Source: Candidatus Krumholzibacteriota bacterium
Lineage (GTDB): Bacteria > Krumholzibacteriota > Krumholzibacteriia > Krumholzibacteriales > Krumholzibacteriaceae
DNA length: 64,000 bases
Assembly: GCA_016931295.1 (NCBI GenBank)
Contig: JAFGEZ010000012.1
Location: 6,100-70,099, forward strand
Direction of reading: 5' to 3'
Made by a program: the position numbers and the translations under genes. The notes beneath the pieces are model-generated. The model searched no databases. It worked only from the letters and a program-made list of their open reading frames with translations, and was not told the DNA's origin. Positions 1 to 8,226 of the stretch are shown one piece after another (the first letter of the stretch is position 1; every line of letters starts with the position of its first letter).

Positions 1-1226
1 GGGCTCAAGACGGAGATCTCGATCTCGATACCGTCGATCTCGTCAGCCGTCACGGGAGGGAAGCGGTAGTCGTCGAAGGCGGCGGCGACGGCCATCTCGC
101 TGATCGTGTCGGCGAGGGGTTTGACCGCCTCGATGTACCCGATGCAGCCGCGAAGCCGGCCGCCCTTCTTCAGCGTGACGAAGCCGCCTCGCTTCTCGCC
201 GAGGACGTTCGAGGCGGGCCGTTCGGGGAGGGGCGCGTCGTCGCCGAGCGCACGTGCGATCGTTCGCCGGGCGAGGCGAAGAAGGAACCGGCGGGTGCCG
301 TCGTCGAGACCCGCGTCGTCCCCGGGGGCGCCCCGCGAAGAAGAGCGCTTCGTTCCTTGCGGTTCCTCGTCGCCGGTTGATCCGGCTGCGATCATCGCTG
401 CGGAAACGTACCCGACGACGCTCGAGTGGTCTCCCGTCACGTCCCCCGACGTCGCGTAGGCGAGGACGTCGCACCGCGATGCGCCGAGTCGGCCGGCGGC
501 GATCATCGCCGCCGCAGTCGGTCCGCCGCCGCACGCTTCCGTGCCGCCGGAGGAGAGCGAGGAGAGGAGCTGTTCAACCGAGAAGCCGCGGAGGCCGTCG
601 AGGAAGACGCCGTCGAGCCTGCCGGCCTCCCGTCCGGCGTGGAAATGGGAGAGGTCCGTGCTCGCCACGATCAGCGCGTTCCGACCGGCGAGGGCCTCGC
701 CGAGGGCCTCGCCGAGGATGCGGACGTTCGATGCGCTCTGGTCGCCCATGACGATCGCCACGAGGTCGAACTGGCCGAGCGCCACCTGGAGGAAGGGGAG
801 CTGCACCTCGAGGGAGTGCTCGCCGCGGCCGCCGGCGACGACGCGATGCCCTTCCATCGCCGCGCGGACGCGACCGCCCGTTCCGGCGAGCAGCTCGACG
901 ATCTCCCTGTTCACCGGGATCGCGCCGAGCGGCGTCTCGTAGGCCGCGCCGGGGAAGACGGACGAGAAATCGAAGTATTCGACGTGGCAGGGGGAGATGA
1001 CGACGACCGTCTCGTAGGAGCGCCCGCGGATGAGTCGGTAGCCGTGCGCCGCGACAGCGCCCGAATACTGGTAGCCGGCGTGCGGGGAGACGAGGGCGAC
1101 GACGCGCCCGCCGACATCGGCGGCGCCAACGGCGTCGAGATACCCCTCGATGTCCCGCCTCAGTCGCACGGGGTCCCCGGGGTAGAATTGGCCCGCGACG
1201 ACCGGCGGGCGCACGGTGCGTTCCAT
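1..1226 (-). CDS. AmmeMemoRadiSam system protein B (MEMO1-like) fused in frame to an AMMECR1 (protein A) domain; 3' end runs off the window
   Basis: Hand translation of the minus strand. ATG at 1226 gives MERTVRPPVVAGQFYPGDP...VSPHAGYQYSG...IVASTDLSHFH...SGDVTGDHSSVVGYVSAAM, all MEMO hallmarks. This is followed in the same frame, with no stop, by a Gly/Asp/Glu-rich linker and then AMMECR1-like sequence (GCIGYIE, AAAFDDYRFPPV). The frame was checked to be continuous at positions 119, 419, 539 and 719. It is absent from the ORF track because there is no stop inside the window. Confidence 0.75.
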   Translation of the reverse strand, partial: MERTVRPPVVAGQFYPGDPVRLRRDIEGYLDAVGAADVGGRVVALVSPHAGYQYSGAVAAHGYRLIRGRSYETVVVISPCHVEYFDFSSVFPGAAYETPLGAIPVNREIVELLAGTGGRVRAAMEGHRVVAGGRGEHSLEVQLPFLQVALGQFDLVAIVMGDQSASNVRILGEALGEALAGRNALIVASTDLSHFHAGREAGRLDGVFLDGLRGFSVEQLLSSLSSGGTEACGGGPTAAAMIAAGRLGASRCDVLAYATSGDVTGDHSSVVGYVSAAMIAAGSTGDEEPQGTKRSSSRGAPGDDAGLDDGTRRFLLRLARRTIARALGDDAPLPERPASNVLGEKRGGFVTLKKGGRLRGCIGYIEAVKPLADTISEMAVAAAFDDYRFPPVTADEIDGIEIEISVLS

Positions 1227-1309
1227 CGTCCCCTCTTCTCCTTTCGCGGCGTTCGCGGAGACGGCGATTGCCGCCGCCGCGAAGACCGCCGCTCCGACGA
1301 TGCATCCTC

Positions 1310-2455
1310 TCATTCCCAGACTCCCGGCACCGCCGCGCCGCACGCGGCGCACCTGCCTTCCCGGATGGCCGTCGCGACCACGCGGTACCCGCTTCTCGAT
1401 ACTACCGTCTTCCCGCAGGCGGGGCAACAGGTGTTCTCCGCCTCGCCGTGGGGGACGTTGCCGATGTAGACGTAGCGCATTCCCGCCTCCATCGCGGCGT
1501 CCCGTGCGCGCTCGAGCGTCTCGACGGGGGTCGGTGGAAGGTCGCTGAGACGGTAGTGGGGGAAGAAGCGCGAGAAGTGCAGCGGAACGTCGGGGCCGGC
1601 GTGGCCGGCCAGCCACGCGGCCATCTCGCCGATCCGGGCCGGATCGTCGTTCAGCGTGGGCACGACGAGATAGACGATCTCGAGCCACGTTCCGGTCTCG
1701 CTGACCGTTTCGATGGCGGAGAGGACCGGCGAGAGCCGTCCGGAGCAGATGCGGCGGTAGTAGTCGTCGTCGAAGGCCTTCAGGTCGATCTTGACCGCGT
1801 CCACGAGCGAGCAGAGCTCGCGGAGCGGCTCCGTCTCGATGTACGCCCCGGTGACCACGACGGACCGGAGCCCGCGTTCCCTGGCGAGCGAGGCGATGTC
1901 GGCGGCGTATTCCCAGTAGACGACCGGTTCCCCGTAGGTGAATGCGATCGATGCCGCACCGACCCGGGAGGCCGCATCGACGATACGGTCGGGCGGCATG
2001 TCCTGCGTGTCGACCTCGCCGGGACGCGAGCGGGATATCTGCCAGTTCTGGCAGAAGTCGCAGGCGAGGTTGCAGCCGACCGTCGAGAGTGAGAAGGCGG
2101 AGGTCCCGGGAAGGAAATGGAAGAAGGGTTTCTTCTCGATCGGGTCGAGATGCATCGCGCAGGGCCGGCCCCAGACGAGCGTCACGAGCCGGCCGGCCTC
2201 GTTCCCGCGCGCACCGCACCAGCCGCTGTCTCCCGGCGGGATCACGCAGGCGCGGGGACAGAGCAAGCATCGCACGCGACCGTTCCCGGCCGGTTTCCAC
2301 CAGCGGGCCTCGACGGCGTCGGCCGCCGCCGGCGAGGGGATGCCTGCGGCCAGGAGAGCGGCGGTCGATCCGGCGAGAAAACACCGCCTCGTCATCGGAT
2401 CGCCGACGGTTCGTCTGCCGTGTCTGGTGTTCTTCATGATCGCTCGCGACCTCAT
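1310..2455 (-). CDS. AmmeMemoRadiSam system radical SAM enzyme (PflA-like activase fold) with a Tat-signal-like N-terminus
   Basis: CNLACDFCQNW radical SAM CxxxCxxC motif. N-terminal Cys ribbon CLLCPRACVIPPGDSGWCGAR. Sits directly upstream and co-directional with the MEMO-AMMECR1 gene. N-terminus MTRRCFLAGSTAALLAAGIPSPAAADA resembles a twin-arginine signal. The start could be Met1 (2455) or Met15 (2413). Confidence 0.85.
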   Translation of the reverse strand: MRSRAIMKNTRHGRRTVGDPMTRRCFLAGSTAALLAAGIPSPAAADAVEARWWKPAGNGRVRCLLCPRACVIPPGDSGWCGARGNEAGRLVTLVWGRPCAMHLDPIEKKPFFHFLPGTSAFSLSTVGCNLACDFCQNWQISRSRPGEVDTQDMPPDRIVDAASRVGAASIAFTYGEPVVYWEYAADIASLARERGLRSVVVTGAYIETEPLRELCSLVDAVKIDLKAFDDDYYRRICSGRLSPVLSAIETVSETGTWLEIVYLVVPTLNDDPARIGEMAAWLAGHAGPDVPLHFSRFFPHYRLSDLPPTPVETLERARDAAMEAGMRYVYIGNVPHGEAENTCCPACGKTVVSRSGYRVVATAIREGRCAACGAAVPGVWE

Positions 2456-2495: not shown

Positions 2496-3833
2496 TCAGG
2501 GCATGAGACCGGCGCCGATCGATTCGAACCGGCGGCGCAGGCGGGCGGCGGTATGCACGGGGAGACGCCCGAGTGCGTCCGAGGAGAGCGATCCGCCGAT
2601 CTCGTGGTCGGCGAGGGGCGTGGCGATGCGGATGCGGTCGAGCAGGCGTCCGTCCGCGTCCTCTATGACGATCTCGACGGCGAGCGGATCGAGAAAGGAT
2701 GCGCCCGACTCGAAGGTGTCGTCGAGAAACCCGTCGAACCGCGTCCGCCGCAGGTCGTCGAGAAGCGAGAAAACGGCCTGGCCCCGGACCGCCGCGTCGC
2801 CCGCTTCGGGCGCGACCCACGCGCCGTCGCCGCCGCGCAGCGCGACGGTCGTGTCGGGGCTCGTCCACCGGACGAGATGCGCCGCGTTCGGATCGAAGAA
2901 GGCGAGCCGGCGGGAGCGCAACCCTTCCGGGTCGACCTCGAAGATCGGGAGGATGTCCGACGTCCTGATCGAGACGACCTTGTCGAGACCGTCGCGGAGC
3001 ACGTGCACCGTCTCCTCGTCGACCCGTCCGATCGAGATCGAGACGATCCCCGACGGGCCGTCGATGAACAGGCGGCGGCCGGGGGCGCGGAGGCCGAACC
3101 GATCGAGGGAATCCGTCGTCTCCGCGTCGAAGGAGCGGATGATCGTCTCGGAGAGCCTCTTCGCGTACGCGTCCATCCAGGAGGACTCCACGCGGTAGCG
3201 CGGGCCGGTGCGCCACCATCCCCCGGCCTCGCGGGCGAAGGAGAGACGGCGGTTGCCGTCGTTGACGGTGATCGCGGAGATGTCGCCGGGGATGACGTGG
3301 AACAGGTTCTTGTCGCGCAGGTGGAAGAGGTTCTTGCGCATCGCGTTGTGCATCAGGTCGCGCGTGATGAGGACGGCGTGCTCGTCGTTGACGCGGACGT
3401 AGGCGCGGGGGCCGGTCGGCGTCGTGTCGCCGACGCGCACCGTGTCGACGCGGCCGCGACGATCGTTGAAGAGGATCACCGTGGCAAAGGGATCGTCGAG
3501 ACCGTACGGGGCGAAATCATACACCCCGTCGAATTCCTCGAGTTTCCGTCCGGGGACGACCTGGTCGAGGACGAGGTCGATCATCGACCGCTGGCCGGGG
3601 GTGACGACCGGGCTCGTGATGATCCACTCCTCACCGGACCGTTCCATGACGATCAGCTCGCCCCCGGGCGGGCGGAGCGAGAAGCGGTCGACCTCCTCGG
3701 GGCCGTAGGGGAAGATGGTTCCGGAGCGGCCCGAACGCTCCGTCGCGCGCCGCCGCGGCTCCTCGACGGCGAAGAACCATGCGGCGACCAGGATGAGCAG
3801 TACGAGGAGGATCCATGTCGTTCGCGCGCGCAC
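2496..3833 (-). CDS. DUF4340-like protein, N-terminal membrane anchor, associated with the GldG-type ABC system
   Basis: ORF 2496..3947. Preferred start is GTG at 3833, preceded by a gaaagga RBS and 13 nt after the GldG stop. Has an N-terminal TM helix (TWILLVLLILVAAWFF). Its position downstream of GldG/GldF/GldA-like genes is typical of DUF4340. Confidence 0.65.
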   Translation of the reverse strand: MRARTTWILLVLLILVAAWFFAVEEPRRRATERSGRSGTIFPYGPEEVDRFSLRPPGGELIVMERSGEEWIITSPVVTPGQRSMIDLVLDQVVPGRKLEEFDGVYDFAPYGLDDPFATVILFNDRRGRVDTVRVGDTTPTGPRAYVRVNDEHAVLITRDLMHNAMRKNLFHLRDKNLFHVIPGDISAITVNDGNRRLSFAREAGGWWRTGPRYRVESSWMDAYAKRLSETIIRSFDAETTDSLDRFGLRAPGRRLFIDGPSGIVSISIGRVDEETVHVLRDGLDKVVSIRTSDILPIFEVDPEGLRSRRLAFFDPNAAHLVRWTSPDTTVALRGGDGAWVAPEAGDAAVRGQAVFSLLDDLRRTRFDGFLDDTFESGASFLDPLAVEIVIEDADGRLLDRIRIATPLADHEIGGSLSSDALGRLPVHTAARLRRRFESIGAGLMP

Positions 3834-3846
3834 AACCGGTCCTTTC

Positions 3847-5391
3847 TCACGCGGAGCGGCGCCGCCGGATCGAGACGAATGCAGCCATGCCGGCGACGGC
3901 GAGGGGAACGGCGACGACGGGTATCCAGAAGACCACCCGGCCTTCACGGTCGGAGAGGACGACCGGCTGGAGGAGCGGATCGCGGGGCCTGATCGAGATC
4001 AGATCCTCCTGCTCGGCGAGCCAGCCGATCGTGTTGAGGATCAGGTCGCGGTGCGCGGAGGTCTTCACGTTCGCGTTCATCGCGAAGTCGGCGTCACCGA
4101 AGACGACGAGGCGCATGCGGCGCCGGAGCGGGGCGCCCGCCGCGTCGCCGGGGGGGACGTCGCGGGAAGCGACGGCGGCGATGGCCACCGGGCCCGCCGC
4201 GTCGTGTTCGGGGTCGAAGCGCGTCTGTCCCGCCATGAGGGAATCGAGATCGGATTCCGAGTAGGCGCCCTGAGCGGTCTTGCAGAGGACGATCGCCTCG
4301 ACGCCCTCCGGCGCCGGATCGGCCGGCAGGACGGACCGGGCCTGGGGAAAGAAGGAAAGCTCCCGTATCGGGCGGGTGATCGCATGGTCGCCGTAGGTGT
4401 TGACCACCGGGGTCAGGTAGTTGCCGGCGAGCAGCTTCCCGAACCGGTCGATCACCATGTCGTCGCGGACCTCGATCCCGTGCCGGTACGCGATGAGGCA
4501 CAGCCGCGGGATCGAGGTCATCGGCTCGAGGAGCATGAGGACCTTTCCGCCGCCGTCGAGGTAGCCGTCGACGAGGGCCTCCTCGCGCGGGAAGAGATCG
4601 ACGGACGGGCCGGCGATGACGAGCATCTCGCAACTGTCCGGCACCCCATCCGCCGTGGCGAGAAGGAGCTCCCTCGCGTCGTACCCCTCGCCCGCGAGGG
4701 CCAGGCCGAGCTCGCTGTAGCCGTCCGGCGCCTCGTCGTCGATCGACTTCTCGCCGTGGCCCGTCGTGAAGCAGACGGTCTTCCTTCCCGGCCTGACGAC
4801 CTTGAGGATCGCGTTGGTGAGGGCTTCCTCGCTCGTCTCCGTGATGTGCGCGTCCCGCTCGCCCGATTCGACGACGATGGTCTCCACGTCGCCGACGCCG
4901 TAGCGGCGGGCGGCGACGGGATCGCGGTCGGGATCGACGAATCGCCAGGTCAGGCGGGTGGAAGCGGCGGCGTATTCGCGGACGAGATCCTCGAGCACGC
5001 GGCGCACGGGGGAGGTGTCCTTGAAGAAGAGGTTCACGGCCACGTCCTTCTCCAAACCGGCGAGGATCGCCCGCGTCTGCGGCGCGAGGGAGAAGCGCCG
5101 GTTCGCCGTGGTGTCGAAACGCCTGTCGTGGCGCGTCGCGATCGTCTGCAGGAAGACGAGCAGGCCGAGGAAGAGGGCGATCGACATCCACGCGTGCATC
5201 TCGAGGCGGCGCTGGCGTCTGCCGCCGGCCGTGCGATCGCGAAAGAAGAGGGCGGCGACCGAGAAGGCGAACCCGAGGAGGAGGGGGAGGACGGAGAGGA
5301 AACCGCTGCCGTGCAGTATCCCGTAGGTGACCGAGCCGACGAGTATGAGCGCCAGTCCAAGCGGTCCGAATATTCCTGTCATGCGTCGCAT
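3847..5391 (-). CDS. GldG-like ABC-type transport system auxiliary component (N- and C-terminal TM anchors)
   Basis: 514 aa with TM segments at both termini and a large central domain. Directly follows the ABC-2 permease and ATPase. Family resemblance to the Gliding-motility-associated ABC transporter substrate-binding GldG / ABC-type uncharacterised transport system. Confidence 0.8.
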   Translation of the reverse strand: MRRMTGIFGPLGLALILVGSVTYGILHGSGFLSVLPLLLGFAFSVAALFFRDRTAGGRRQRRLEMHAWMSIALFLGLLVFLQTIATRHDRRFDTTANRRFSLAPQTRAILAGLEKDVAVNLFFKDTSPVRRVLEDLVREYAAASTRLTWRFVDPDRDPVAARRYGVGDVETIVVESGERDAHITETSEEALTNAILKVVRPGRKTVCFTTGHGEKSIDDEAPDGYSELGLALAGEGYDARELLLATADGVPDSCEMLVIAGPSVDLFPREEALVDGYLDGGGKVLMLLEPMTSIPRLCLIAYRHGIEVRDDMVIDRFGKLLAGNYLTPVVNTYGDHAITRPIRELSFFPQARSVLPADPAPEGVEAIVLCKTAQGAYSESDLDSLMAGQTRFDPEHDAAGPVAIAAVASRDVPPGDAAGAPLRRRMRLVVFGDADFAMNANVKTSAHRDLILNTIGWLAEQEDLISIRPRDPLLQPVVLSDREGRVVFWIPVVAVPLAVAGMAAFVSIRRRRSA

Positions 5392-5395
5392 GCGC

Positions 5396-6166
5396 TCAGT
5401 TCCTCCATCTGGCCGATTCGAGCGATTTCAGCGTGAGGAAGAGGAAGAAGGCCGACATGAGGAGGTAATAGGTGACGTCCTGCAGGACGATGACGCCCTT
5501 GGTGAAGGACTCGAGATGATAGAGAAGGGAGAACTGCGAGATCACCTTCGCCGCGGTCGGGCCGGCGAAGGGGACCGTCCACCCGATGACGAGGAAGAAG
5601 AGGCCCGCCCCGAAGGCGGAGACCCCCGCGACGAGCTGGTTGTCGGTGAGGGAGGAGAAGAACGTGCCGATGGCGATGAAGGTCCCTCCCATGAGAAAGA
5701 GGCCGAGGTAGCCGGTGACGATCGGCCCGGGCTCCGGATCGGCGTAGACGGCGAGGAGCACGGGGCAGGCGACGGTCCCCGCGAGCATGATCCCCCAGGT
5801 CGCGAGCGCCGCGGCGTATTTGCCGGCGACTGCAGGCAGGTCGCCGATCGGATAGGTGAGCAGGAGCTCGAACGTCCCCTGCTTCCGTTCCTCGGCGAGC
5901 AGGCGCATCGTGAGGAGGGGAAGCAGGATGAGCAGGATGAGGCTGAGGTCCCCGAGAAGCGGGCGCATGACGTCGTCGGTGAGGTTCAGCGGCATGCCGA
6001 AATCCCCCGACCTGGCCATCTGGTAGGAGAGGTAGTTGTACCGCTTGAAGATGTTGTGGAAGAAGTAGCCGGCGAGGAAGAGGAATACCGACAGCGTCAC
6101 CCACGCGGTGAGCGACCGGAAGAGGTACTTCAGCTCGCGCCGGAAGATGATGGCGAAGGGGCGCAT
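5396..6166 (-). CDS. ABC-2 family transporter permease (GldF-like)
   Basis: 256 aa polytopic membrane protein (MRPFAIIFRRELKYLFRS...), typical ABC-2 permease. Overlaps or abuts the ATPase gene. Confidence 0.85.
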   Translation of the reverse strand: MRPFAIIFRRELKYLFRSLTAWVTLSVFLFLAGYFFHNIFKRYNYLSYQMARSGDFGMPLNLTDDVMRPLLGDLSLILLILLPLLTMRLLAEERKQGTFELLLTYPIGDLPAVAGKYAAALATWGIMLAGTVACPVLLAVYADPEPGPIVTGYLGLFLMGGTFIAIGTFFSSLTDNQLVAGVSAFGAGLFFLVIGWTVPFAGPTAAKVISQFSLLYHLESFTKGVIVLQDVTYYLLMSAFFLFLTLKSLESARWRN

Positions 6167-6167
6167 C

Positions 6168-7106
6168 TCAGGCCTCCTCCGTGACGAGCCGCAGGAAGAT
6201 CTCCTCGAGCGAGAGCTCCTCGCCGAAGATCTCGACGAGGGGCAGTCCTGCGTGGACGAGACGGGAGGCGATCGCTCCGCGCAGATCGATCTCGGGGGCC
6301 GTCTCGACGCGGATGCCGTTCGTGTCGTCCGGCGATGTCGCCACCGCGAGGATGCCCTCCATCCGTTTGATCTCCCCGGCGGCGGCGGCCGTCGAGGCCG
6401 GATCGGCGAGACGGACCCGGACGGTCGAGGAACGGCGGAGCCGGTTCCGCAGGTTGGCGGGGCTGTCGACGGCGACGAGCTCGCCGCGGTTGACGATGAT
6501 GACGCGGTCGCAGACCTGGTTGACCTCGGGGAGGATGTGGCTGGAGAGGATCACGGTGCGGTCCTGGCCGATGTGCTTCACCAGGCGCCGGATGTCGATG
6601 ATCTGCTTGGGATCGAGACCGATGGTCGGCTCGTCGAGGATGAGCAGCTCCGGGTCGCCGATGATCGCCTGCGCGATGCCGACCCGCTGCTGGTAGCCCT
6701 TGGAGAGGTGTCCGATCGTCCGGTGGGCGACCTCGGCGAGACCGCATTTCTCCACGGCGTCGCCGACCGCCGCCGTGACGCGGCGCGCGGGCACGCCCTT
6801 GAGGCCGGCGGCGAATCCGAGATACTCGGCCGTCCGCATGTCGTGGTAGAGGGGGGTCTTCTCGGGGAGGTAGCCGATCCGTCGCCTGACCTCCATCGAC
6901 TGCTCGAGTATGTCGAAGCCGCAGATCCTCGCCGTTCCGGACGTGGGGGGGAGAAAGCAGGTGAGCATCCGCATCGTCGTCGTCTTCCCCGCGCCGTTCG
7001 GGCCGAGGAAGCCGAGGACCTCGCCGCGCTTCACGGTGAAGGAGAGATCGCGTACGCCAACGTTGGCGCCGTAGTACCGGGTGAGGTTCTCGACCTCGAT
7101 CAAATC
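6168..7106 (-). CDS. ABC transporter ATP-binding protein (GldA-like)
   Basis: Walker A GPNGAGKTT, signature LSKGYQQRV, Walker B LLILDEP. The ORF track extends to 7187 with a TTG start. I place the start at TTG 7106 (LIEVENLTRYYG), the usual N-terminus of this family. Start uncertain. Confidence 0.8.
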   Translation of the reverse strand, partial: DLIEVENLTRYYGANVGVRDLSFTVKRGEVLGFLGPNGAGKTTTMRMLTCFLPPTSGTARICGFDILEQSMEVRRRIGYLPEKTPLYHDMRTAEYLGFAAGLKGVPARRVTAAVGDAVEKCGLAEVAHRTIGHLSKGYQQRVGIAQAIIGDPELLILDEPTIGLDPKQIIDIRRLVKHIGQDRTVILSSHILPEVNQVCDRVIIVNRGELVAVDSPANLRNRLRRSSTVRVRLADPASTAAAAGEIKRMEGILAVATSPDDTNGIRVETAPEIDLRGAIASRLVHAGLPLVEIFGEELSLEEIFLRLVTEEA

Positions 7107-7352
7107 GCATCGTCTCCGCGTGTCGATGTGTCGAATGCTATCTGCCACCCATGCAAGAAGATAAGATACGGCGAGGCGCGGTGTCAATCACCGACGGGAA
7201 AAATGTCTTGTTCGCCCGGGATCGCCTTCCCTATCATCGGCCCCGTCGCCGGAGCGCGGTGTAACAAAATCCGCGATCCGCCGTAACAGGAGAAGACATC
7301 GGCGATCCCCCGGGATCGGCGGCCCTGGGAACGGTTCAACCGGACGGAAAGG

Positions 7353-7829
7353 ATGAAGATGAAGAAGGCGATCCTGACGCTCGCGATCCTGCTGCTGCTC
7401 GCGCCACCCGCCCGAGCCGCGGACACGGACCTCTGGTACTCCGTCGTCTTCCCCGGCTGGGGACAGATGCGCGACGGCCGGTACGGGCGGGGCACGGCGC
7501 TCGTCAGCGCCGAGATCGTATCCCTTCTCGGACTCGTCATCAGCGACATCCAGTACAACCGCGAGGTCGACAAGTACGACAACTGGCGCGCGACCTACTA
7601 CGCCGCAGACTACATCGGCGACAAGCAGGCCGCCTTCGAGATGATGAACGAGAAGTGGAACGAGGCCGAGGATCTCCACCGGTACCGGAACTATTTCCTC
7701 GGCGCGGCGATCGGCGTCTGGGCGATCGGCGTCATCGACATGGCGATCGGCGGAGAGGCCTCGCCGCCGCCGCTGGCCCTGGAGGCGCGCCGGGACGGAT
7801 TCCTCGTCACCAGGACGATTCACTTCTAG
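7353..7829 (+). CDS. hypothetical exported protein (signal peptide)
   Basis: ATG with aggatg RBS. Signal peptide MKMKKAILTLAILLLLAPPARAAD. GC3-rich codon usage. No family recognised. Confidence 0.6.
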   Translation: MKMKKAILTLAILLLLAPPARAADTDLWYSVVFPGWGQMRDGRYGRGTALVSAEIVSLLGLVISDIQYNREVDKYDNWRATYYAADYIGDKQAAFEMMNEKWNEAEDLHRYRNYFLGAAIGVWAIGVIDMAIGGEASPPPLALEARRDGFLVTRTIHF

Positions 7830-7830
7830 C

Positions 7831-8226
7831 ATGGAGAATACGATGCGGAGAACCTGTGCGATGATCGCGGCGGCCGTCCTGACGGTCGCCTTCCTCTCGT
7901 GCGGCACCGATCACGAGGGATTGCCGACCTCGTTCGAGTTCACGCCGCCGCCCGTCCCCGTCGACGTCGCCGCCTCCGGGCTTCCCGGCGAGACGCTCGT
8001 CACGTGGGGATACGGCGATCCGGGGATCGTCGGGGAGTACCGGGTCTACTACTACTACGAGGACTACGGGATGATCGAGCTCGTCGGCACGACGACCGAG
8101 ACGCTCTACCATGACGAGGGACTCGTCCCGAACGTCGAGTACTGTTACGTCGTCTCGGCCGTCGACTCGAACGGGCTCGAGGGCTACCGCTCCGAAACCG
8201 CCTGCGCGACGCCGACGATCGATTGA
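7831..8226 (+). CDS. fibronectin type III-like domain lipoprotein
   Basis: Lipobox LSCG after a signal peptide. FN3-like beta-sandwich motifs (EYRVYYY, EYCYVVSAVDSNGLEG). Begins 2 nt after the previous gene. Confidence 0.6.
   Translation: MENTMRRTCAMIAAAVLTVAFLSCGTDHEGLPTSFEFTPPPVPVDVAASGLPGETLVTWGYGDPGIVGEYRVYYYYEDYGMIELVGTTTETLYHDEGLVPNVEYCYVVSAVDSNGLEGYRSETACATPTID

Follow-up and report, generated by a model that had tools for sequence, protein, structure and literature searches.

A putative exported variant of the AmmeMemoRadiSam system in Candidatus Krumholzibacteriota

The AmmeMemoRadiSam system, which is defined computationally, combines a radical S-adenosylmethionine (SAM) enzyme (TIGR04337) with a Memo-like protein (TIGR04336) and an AMMECR1-like protein (TIGR04335), and its known form is cytoplasmic. 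We know of no radical SAM enzyme studied to date that works elsewhere than in the cytoplasm, since the chemistry depends on an O2-labile [4Fe-4S] cluster, on SAM, and on an electron donor of low potential. We analyzed a 64,000-nucleotide stretch of DNA from a Candidatus Krumholzibacteriota bacterium (contig JAFGEZ010000012.1, positions 6,100 to 70,099), referred to here as the window, in which the open reading frame (ORF) 1310..2455 on the minus strand encodes the radical SAM enzyme (amrS-type) of such a system. An earlier note on this DNA had claimed that the enzyme carries a twin-arginine translocation (Tat) signal peptide. We found that the signal is conserved among homologues from dozens of bacterial lineages and that the partner protein has a signal of its own. 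Judging from these sequences, we consider it probable (roughly 70%) that the window encodes an exported, extracytoplasmic AmmeMemoRadiSam variant.

The human homologues of the partner proteins, MEMO1 and AMMECR1, are linked to disease. The papers that we found on AmmeMemoRadiSam, or on AMMECR1 together with radical SAM, contain no biochemistry for the system. The sole functional prediction that we found is RNA base modification, which presumes a cytoplasmic system (Balaji and Aravind 2007, PMC2034487) and cannot apply to a periplasmic version. Our literature searches turned up neither a radical SAM enzyme that is Tat-bearing or periplasmic nor any link between AmmeMemoRadiSam and a SpeE-like membrane protein. 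Databases already carry automated PF10518 flags, so anyone who looks can see the raw feature.

The window locus resembles the cytoplasmic system in several ways: its three domains all score above their cutoffs, its genes adjoin each other with translational coupling, it has the Memo-AMMECR1 fusion that many members share, and its radical SAM and terminal Cys motifs are conserved. In contrast, the exported variant has a Tat signal on the radical SAM enzyme and a signal of the general secretory (Sec) or lipoprotein kind on Memo-AMMECR1. It also has a SpeE-like protein with 14 transmembrane (TM) segments that we never found beside 20 loci without signals.

The glycyl-radical activases are the closest sequence families after TIGR04337, and pyruvate formate-lyase activating enzyme (PFL-AE; 3cb8) is the closest solved fold, with the same partial TIM-barrel radical SAM core and a CxxxCxxC motif near the N-terminus. 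However, identity to PFL-AE is 15 to 16%, and two parts of the window enzyme are additional: the Cys ribbon at its N-terminus and a CxxC...CxxC domain at its C-terminus. PFL-AE is, moreover, cytoplasmic and reduced by flavodoxin. The window enzyme scored 55.9 bits against TIGR02493 (cutoff, 231.75) and 49.3 bits against TIGR02494 (cutoff, 174.35), and we found no glycyl-radical enzyme among the neighbors in the window or in the Krumholzibacteria relatives. Because of the score of about 56 versus 231.75 bits and the lack of such a neighbor, we regard the JGI label "pyruvate formate lyase activating enzyme" on most homologues as a propagated misannotation.

With the classical Tat-dependent Fe-S or cofactor enzymes (hydrogenase small subunits, the DmsA/TorA family, NapG-type ferredoxins, and NADP-containing glucose-fructose oxidoreductase), the window enzyme shares an S/T-R-R-x-F-L motif on a protein that folds around its cofactor, partners that are exported separately or together, and carriers from anaerobic lineages. 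Unlike it, none of these is a radical SAM enzyme, and none needs a diffusible cytoplasmic cosubstrate after export.

The radical SAM enzyme and its twin-arginine N-terminus

The features of the radical SAM gene are as follows.

1310..2455, minus strand: radical SAM ORF, 381 amino acids when counted from the first ATG (longest ORF)
2455, 2437, and 2395, minus strand: candidate ATG starts M1, M7, and M21, the last directly before TRR
2315..2395, minus strand: Tat-type signal peptide MTRRCFLAGSTAALLAAGIPSPAAADA, residues 21-47 (27 amino acids), ahead of TIGR04337 profile position 1
2384-2389, minus strand: twin arginines of the signal
1313..2308, minus strand: predicted mature catalytic domain, matching TIGR04337 positions 1-334
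2216-2269, minus strand: N-terminal Cys ribbon C63/C66/C70/C80
2051-2074, minus strand: radical SAM cluster motif CNLACDFC, residues 128-135
1925-1939, minus strand: GGE-like motif TYGEP, residues 173-177
1340-1429, minus strand: C-terminal CCPAC...CAAC motif

Against TIGR04337 (cutoff, 220), the ORF product scored 387.6 bits, and its residues 50-381 cover profile positions 1-334 of 349; against PF04055, it scored 77 bits. It has both the CxxxCxxC and the GGE-like motif of a radical SAM core, and Memo-like (B) and AMMECR1-like (A) genes accompany it. An identical protein from a Candidatus Krumholzibacteriota metagenome-assembled genome (MAG) is recorded at NCBI (P0001), begun at M7 and 375 amino acids long. 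In an alignment of 36 sequences (A1), the Cys residues of the ribbon, the cluster motif, and the C-terminus are invariant or nearly so, as is TYGEP. An AlphaFold2 model built with the 36-sequence alignment as input had a mean pLDDT (predicted local distance difference test) of 94.2, with 93-98 for the core and 68-80 for residues 1-30, which form a detached helix and coil. Its best fold match in the PDB was the PFL-activating enzyme 3cb8, solved with AdoMet (target TM-score, 0.80; E = 1.5e-13). The SAM-binding catalytic core of the window enzyme is intact by these criteria.

We found that MTRRCFLAGSTAALLAAGIPSPAAADA has the parts of a Tat signal: T-R-R-x-F-L, the uncharged, Ala/Gly-rich h-region GSTAALLAAGIPSPAAA, and a possible signal peptidase site, so that AGSTAALLAAGIPSPAAA is followed by A-D-A↓V. 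Many orthologues lack a clear AxA site. As the earlier note had said, the peptide precedes the Cys ribbon and the radical SAM cluster: MTRRCFLAGSTAALLAAGIPSPAAADA stands directly ahead of the EAR[YW][YW] start of the core, and the ribbon and then CNLACDFC come after. When all ORFs of the window were compared, only the radical SAM enzyme had a Tat-like N-terminus.

RRx[F/L/I/V/M/G][L/I/V/M/F/A] stands upstream of the Cys ribbon in 111 of the 120 closest database homologues (52-100% identity). Eight of the other nine begin inside the h-region, which suggests truncated gene calls, and P0085 alone has no extension. In alignment A1, which reaches down to 38% identity, both Arg residues are invariant and the next Phe is nearly so, while the remainder of the signal varies freely; this is the pattern expected of a functional signal peptide. 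A search of the window peptide with PF10518 gave no match; the orthologues P0020 and P0058 passed it with 29.0 and 30.4 bits, respectively (cutoff, 22.7). The signal also occurs with a lipobox, in P0118 (...VLAAC followed by a Pro/Thr-rich linker) and in P0073 (...MIAGC).

The earlier note had also raised an ORF-start artifact, in which translation would begin downstream of the arginines and the "signal" would be untranslated or misframed. Three alternative ATGs do precede the core, the 14 to 20 residues upstream of M21 are not conserved, and an in-frame GTG lies at V61 just before the Cys ribbon, where a few members do start (e.g., L032, MKKVRCLLCP). However, the motif T22-R-R-C-F-L-A28 sits 2-24 residues from any of the three candidate ATGs, so that each keeps it within the first 25 residues, and in the window no in-frame ATG separates the RR motif from the conserved core. 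The RR pair is invariant in the 36 diverse sequences of A1, and five gene calls (P0017, P0020, P0033, P0041, and P0054) start exactly at M-x-RR. The segment E49-K54, between signal and ribbon, is conserved at the protein level as EA[RK][YW][YW]E[KP], and no orthologue has a frameshift or in-frame stop. We therefore regard a start-codon artifact as scarcely credible.

Signals on the MEMO-AMMECR1 partner and their spread across lineages

The partner gene follows the radical SAM gene directly and leaves the window at its left end.

1..1313, minus strand: MEMO-AMMECR1 fusion (AmmeMemoRadiSam proteins B and A)
1310..1313, minus strand: ATGA overlap of the radical SAM stop TGA (1312..1310) with the MEMO-AMMECR1 start ATG (1313..1311)
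1248..1313, minus strand: Sec-type signal peptide MRGCIVGAAVFAAAAIAVSANA of MEMO-AMMECR1, with an A-N-A↓A site
138-155, minus strand: LRGCIG of the AMMECR1 part

MEMO-AMMECR1 scored 179.8 bits against PF01875 and 97.2 bits against PF01871; the part inside the window scored 251.2 bits against TIGR04336 (cutoff, 26) and, truncated as it is, 105.4 bits against TIGR04335 (cutoff, 99). The earlier note had taken this protein to have no signal peptide, counting it from the Met at 1226. We found that the in-frame ATG at 1313, with a Shine-Dalgarno-like GGGAG 8 nucleotides upstream, extends it by 29 residues, MRGCIVGAAVFAAAAIAVSANA↓AKGEEGT, and so adds a Sec-type signal. In three Krumholzibacteria relatives (L081, L082, and L084), the junction of the two genes is the same or adjacent, with GGGAG/GGAGG kept upstream, and the gene callers choose the equivalent upstream start. 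The resulting N-termini, MRTPIAGAAFLAAMLAAGFAA..., MRAPSNTAAVLLLAALVAGAAC..., and MLFGRAFCFIALAAAVLGFAAAA..., differ in sequence, share the physicochemical pattern, and are all signal-like. A systematic problem with the start codon of the partner gene is corrected here. Because the start codon had been mischosen, the enzyme could look like an isolated oddity or its partner like a hitchhiker. We reject hitchhiker export of a signal-less partner, since MEMO-AMMECR1 has its own Sec signal. For the same reason, the option in the earlier note that the system acts at or across the membrane gains more support than that note supposed.

The Met at 1226 is common to all four Krumholzibacteria sequences, just before the Memo core (T-M-E-R-T-V-R), and in three of them (the window, L081, and L082) an AAGGAG-like sequence precedes it or its equivalent. 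This Met is either a relic of an ancestral cytoplasmic start or a second initiation site that would yield a signal-less isoform.

To survey the N-termini, we searched the mature radical SAM domain against representatives of 50%-identity clusters and sorted the best 150 matches. Among these 150, 84 had no extension, at least 28 had a Tat-like one, 16 had other extensions of 26-100 amino acids (including RK variants, lipoboxes, and TM helices), and 22 had long N-terminal fusions. A scan of species-representative genomes gave 80 loci, whose N-termini we curated. They span Eisenbacteria, KSB1, Acidobacteriota, Desulfobacterota and other "Deltaproteobacteria," Omnitrophota, Bacteroidota, Ignavibacteriota, Planctomycetota, Verrucomicrobiota, Chloroflexota, and one Aenigmatarchaeota MAG. 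The radical SAM enzyme bears a signal at 54 of the 80 loci (30 RR, 12 KR, and 12 Sec- or TM-like) and none at 26. The KR form, [ST]-K-R-E-F-[LIV]-K, is found chiefly in Bacteroidales and Ignavibacteria.

When the core domains were placed on a neighbor-joining tree, a basal group comprised 16 signal-less sequences, from archaea, several Acidobacteriota, and others, and the signal-bearing sequences fell into one large group with about 10 signal-less members nested in it. The nearest tree neighbor has the same signal state in 75 of 79 cases. We also compared the signals of partners. Wherever a signal-bearing radical SAM enzyme had an adjacent Memo gene (24/24), the Memo-AMMECR1 protein carried a Sec or lipoprotein (lipobox) signal, and at the two loci with a signal-less Memo protein (L054 and L079), the radical SAM enzyme was signal-less too. 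Export routes would then fit the cofactor, with Tat for the Fe-S protein and Sec or lipoprotein signals for the partner.

These data bear on the idea that the Tat-like peptide is vestigial and the protein stays in the cytoplasm. The window peptide does score slightly too low for TIGR01409 and has no Lys where the SRRxFLK consensus has one, and the nested signal-less members show that the signal can be lost. A relic, however, would not hold RR invariant across phyla while its flanks drift, nor would it covary with the partner's signals or with a specific third gene. We consider a vestigial signal very improbable.

Several subgroups stood out among the signal-bearing sequences. Sec-type radical SAM signals, e.g., MKKSLLLLILLLSVLFPAIGA↓DQ, occur at L008, L012, L013, L017, L018, L023, L042, and L066, mostly Omnitrophota. 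In another subgroup (L015, L037, L038, L043, L051, L052, L059, L063, L069, and L074 and proteins P0149 and P0170), the signal and the core are separated by a further conserved stretch, F-[KR]-G-D-A-P-x-x-L-W-K-W-S-[KR]-E. In a Tat-bearing subgroup (L003, L021, L027, L046, and P0122), the first CxxC of the Cys ribbon is CxxCH (e.g., NCGTCH and DCLKCH), a c-type heme-binding motif placed after an extra insertion of about 40 amino acids; this may be coincidental. The Omnitrophota locus L014 has tandem radical SAM paralogues at 5552-6611 and 6826-7999, one signal-less (353 amino acids) and one with a Tat signal (LSRRDFLKKGCMFAACASG). Locus L051, on a contig assigned to a DPANN Candidatus Aenigmatarchaeota MAG, pairs a Tat-signal radical SAM gene (MTRREFVKKATVAAAG...) with a SpeE-like 14-TM gene. 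Either archaea use the exported variant, or the contig was binned wrongly.

A SpeE-like membrane protein and redox modules at exported-type loci

In the Krumholzibacteria relatives (L081-L084), the gene beside Memo-AMMECR1 on the opposite strand encodes a membrane protein of 729-745 amino acids with a Spermine_synth domain (PF01564, 57 bits). To trace neighbors, we ran targeted phmmer searches across the 80 loci, calling a locus exported-type if the radical SAM enzyme and/or Memo had a signal (60 loci) and cytoplasmic-type if neither did (20 loci). The SpeE-like gene was present at 35 of the 60 exported-type loci versus none of the 20 cytoplasmic-type loci (Fisher p = 9.5e-7). The genome of the window probably has one as well, just beyond the window edge, as judged from three relatives.

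An alignment of 25 SpeE-like sequences, read column by column for hydropathy and charge, gave seven TM segments, a domain of about 310 amino acids, and seven further TM segments. Segments rich in Lys and Arg lie at the N-terminus, in loops 2, 4, and 6, after TM8, TM10, and TM12, and at the C-terminus, all opposite the side of the domain. By the positive-inside rule, both termini are thus predicted to be cytoplasmic and the domain to lie on the trans (periplasmic) side.

Of the SpeE motifs, the Gly-rich loop, the ribose-binding Glu (VELD), and D-G-R-x-F are retained in the domain. The Asp of GGGDG is not conserved, and where D(S/T)xDP has its first Asp, another residue stands, so that the motif reads NLPdP or AAPAP. 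Scores fell well below the spermidine synthase cutoffs (TIGR00417, 61.1 versus 249.55 bits; NF002956, 99.7 versus 472 bits as a partial match). The neighbor has the same fold but is probably not an aminopropyltransferase. In SpeE structures, the GGGDG Asp disfavors the SAM carboxylate; its loss is compatible with binding of SAM rather than decarboxylated SAM. The closest described protein is the PRK03612-type SpeE with its N-terminal TM domain: the neighbor shares the PF01564 match, part of NF002956, the Gly-rich loop, VELD, and DG(R)xF. In contrast, it has a second block of seven TM segments, does not conserve the two Asp residues named above, and has a predicted periplasmic domain.

Beside the SpeE-like gene, the Krumholzibacteria have a conserved acidic protein of 116-130 amino acids (L081, 9436-9786; L082, 12931-13323; L084, 12888-13271), with no Pfam match and no homologue in the other 80 loci.

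Domain fusions and other neighbors place the radical SAM enzyme next to redox proteins. FMN_bind proteins, the substrates of ApbE, are extracytosolic electron carriers (PMC8238504). P0121 and P0146 open with an N-terminal RR/TM anchor; next comes FMN_bind, bearing the flavinylation motif SGAT, and then, past a Pro-rich linker, the radical SAM domain, with no TM segment between FMN_bind and radical SAM. P0135, P0142, and P0148 are fusions with NapH/NosR-like Fer4_5 membrane domains and DsbD_2, and P0123 and P0132 are DsbD_2-radical SAM fusions. P0130 consists of a signal, a beta-propeller, and the radical SAM domain, and P0141 consists of a signal, CBM_11, and the radical SAM domain. Separate DsbD_2, FMN_bind, or NapH-like genes adjoin the radical SAM gene at L013, L017, L023, L028, L033, and L041. 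At the first three of these loci the radical SAM enzyme has a Sec-type signal, and at the last three it is TM anchored.

Such arrangements recall the flavinylated extracytosolic systems (ApbE substrates such as NosR and RnfG/NqrC-like FMN_bind proteins; PMC8238504), since radical SAM homologues are fused or adjacent to FMN_bind with [S/T]GA[T/S], Fer4_5, and DsbD_2; the window locus differs in having no such module. The survey in PMC8238504 makes no mention of radical SAM, Memo, AMMECR1, or spermidine synthase. We consider it plausible that these redox modules offer an electron route to an extracytoplasmic [4Fe-4S] cluster, with the bound FMN domain standing in for flavodoxin.

Two further arrangements were seen. 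At eight loci from several phyla (L001, L002, L004, L005, L007, L019, L030, and L040), the gene directly upstream of a Tat-radical SAM gene, on the same strand, encodes a DUF362 protein (PF04015, 76-84 bits) of about 355 amino acids that likewise bears a Tat signal (…SRRDFLKEF…). Triple fusions, found among matches of 900-1150 amino acids, join radical SAM, Memo, and AMMECR1 in P0134, behind an N-terminal TM helix, and radical SAM, AMMECR1, and Memo in P0163; they confirm that the three activities form a working unit.

The same proteins bear on whether the signal is cleaved. The enzyme might be translocated by Tat and then, as Rieske proteins and Tat lipoproteins do, remain tethered outside the cytoplasmic membrane, on its outer face beside the SpeE-like protein, by an uncleaved signal-anchor. 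Many orthologues without a clear AxA site, the lipobox variants P0118 and P0073, the RR/TM anchors of P0121 and P0146, and a conserved partner that is an integral membrane protein would all fit this. On the other hand, the window peptide has a good A-D-A↓V site, and the h-regions (12-17 residues, mostly Ala/Gly) are short and weakly hydrophobic for a stable TM helix. We consider an uncleaved anchor unlikely, though worth keeping in view; it is a sub-variant of an exported system and no contradiction of it. From the signals, we infer both export and signal cleavage.

Electrons, SAM, and the place of the chemistry

An exported AmmeMemoRadiSam system could work as follows. The radical SAM enzyme would fold and gain its [4Fe-4S] cluster or clusters, and perhaps SAM too, in the cytoplasm, and Tat would carry the folded protein across the cytoplasmic membrane by its twin-arginine signal. 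The translationally coupled MEMO-AMMECR1, needing no cytoplasmic cofactor assembly, would leave unfolded through Sec. Outside the cytoplasm, the two would act jointly on an envelope or periplasmic substrate, and the 14-TM protein, with a SpeE-like domain that would bind an adenosyl ligand and face the periplasm, would join them. In other lineages, the cluster would receive its electrons from trans-membrane redox modules, fused or adjacent: FMN_bind with the ApbE motif, a polyferredoxin of the NapH/NosR type, or DsbD_2. SAM might be a tightly bound cofactor that passes through Tat and is regenerated at each turnover, or it might be delivered by the 14-TM/SpeE-like protein. For the bound cofactor there are two precedents: NADP-containing glucose-fructose oxidoreductase is exported by Tat, and lysine 2,3-aminomutase regenerates its SAM. 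What the sequences show are the signals, their conservation and covariation between partners, the gene neighborhood, and the fusions; SAM delivery, electron source, chemistry, and substrate are inferred.

A stronger form of this proposal is that the locus represents the first radical SAM system working outside the cytoplasm, a self-contained periplasmic module of four elements: a Tat-exported radical SAM enzyme, a Sec-exported Memo-AMMECR1 protein, the 14-TM SpeE-like protein, and lineage-specific redox modules. Here, the outward SpeE-like domain would bind SAM or a SAM-derived adenosyl-sulfonium compound, and the membrane domain would perhaps translocate this ligand. Some lineages would use covalently flavinylated FMN_bind, NapH-like, or DsbD_2 modules instead of flavodoxin to reduce the [4Fe-4S] cluster. 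We put this form forward tentatively, at somewhat less than even odds.

Several findings weigh against an exported system. The signal calls rest on motif and hydropathy heuristics, all sequence based, and the window peptide scored 16.1 bits against TIGR01409, slightly below the cutoff of 16.7. There is no TatA/TatC-like motif in the 64-kb window and no FMN_bind, NapH, or DsbD_2 neighbor at the window locus or in its Krumholzibacteria relatives, and the SpeE-like gene of this genome would lie past the left window edge, outside the analyzed stretch. The 12 strongly hydrophobic Sec-like signals or TM anchors on radical SAM enzymes, chiefly from Omnitrophota, are hard to square with Fe-S insertion in the cytoplasm. 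Six split loci (L006, L022, L032, L045, L047, and L058) pair a signal-less radical SAM enzyme with a Memo-AMMECR1 protein bearing a Sec or lipoprotein signal, so that colocalization of the two is not universal; these radical SAM enzymes start near the Cys ribbon, and no frame upstream of them holds a hidden signal. Taken alone, the contingency between Memo and radical SAM signals gave p = 0.056. Finally, we know of no SAM pool or low-potential reductant outside the cytoplasm. The objection in the earlier note, that a radical SAM enzyme needs cytoplasmic SAM and reductant, is a fair one; given the trans-membrane electron transfer modules and the SAM-fold membrane protein, it is not decisive.

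If the chemistry took place in the cytoplasm, before or independently of export, that objection would vanish. The enzyme could act there on the MEMO-AMMECR1 precursor or on a small molecule that is exported later, and the Tat signal would serve only later disposal, membrane recruitment, or Tat proofreading. The six split loci fit such a scheme, as does the fold, which is nearest to the protein-activating enzyme PFL-AE. Radical SAM maturases that modify later-exported proteins are precedents, among them the cytoplasmic anaerobic sulfatase maturase. HxsB/C are also cytoplasmic radical SAM maturases and act on HxsA, a later-exported protein (PMC13128918). However, cytoplasmic chemistry leaves unexplained the strict RR conservation on the enzyme itself, the radical SAM fusions to extracytosolic FMN_bind, CBM, and propeller domains, and the co-occurrence, specific to the exported variant, of a predicted periplasmic SAM-fold domain. 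We judge it rather improbable.

If instead the system is exported, then the periplasm of many anaerobes would offer low-potential electrons together with SAM, whether free or as a tightly bound cofactor, and a widespread, strongly conserved exported clade of at least 10 phyla with several independent signal and fusion architectures would challenge the cytoplasm-only view of radical SAM enzymes. Were the stronger, four-element form true, SAM-dependent radical chemistry would take place on a cell envelope substrate in many anaerobic phyla. The exported variant provides a concrete handle on the function of the Memo/AMMECR1/radical SAM triad, and it defines a testable four-part module of radical SAM enzyme, Memo-AMMECR1, SpeE-like 14-TM protein, and redox feeders.

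Three further genes lie upstream of the radical SAM gene in the window.

2496..3947, minus strand: DUF4340 protein
3847..5391, minus strand: GldG-like ABC_transp_aux protein
5396..6166, minus strand: ABC-2 permease

Their synteny with the radical SAM gene is kept only within Krumholzibacteria. We considered them as a part of the system, e.g., as a SAM exporter, and set this idea aside, since their homologues occur at 0 of the 80 loci. Among the database homologues of the radical SAM enzyme, P0210, P0218, P0224, and P0265 (710-823 amino acids) have two query-matching stretches split by an insert of about 400 amino acids, which looks like an intein or a homing endonuclease.

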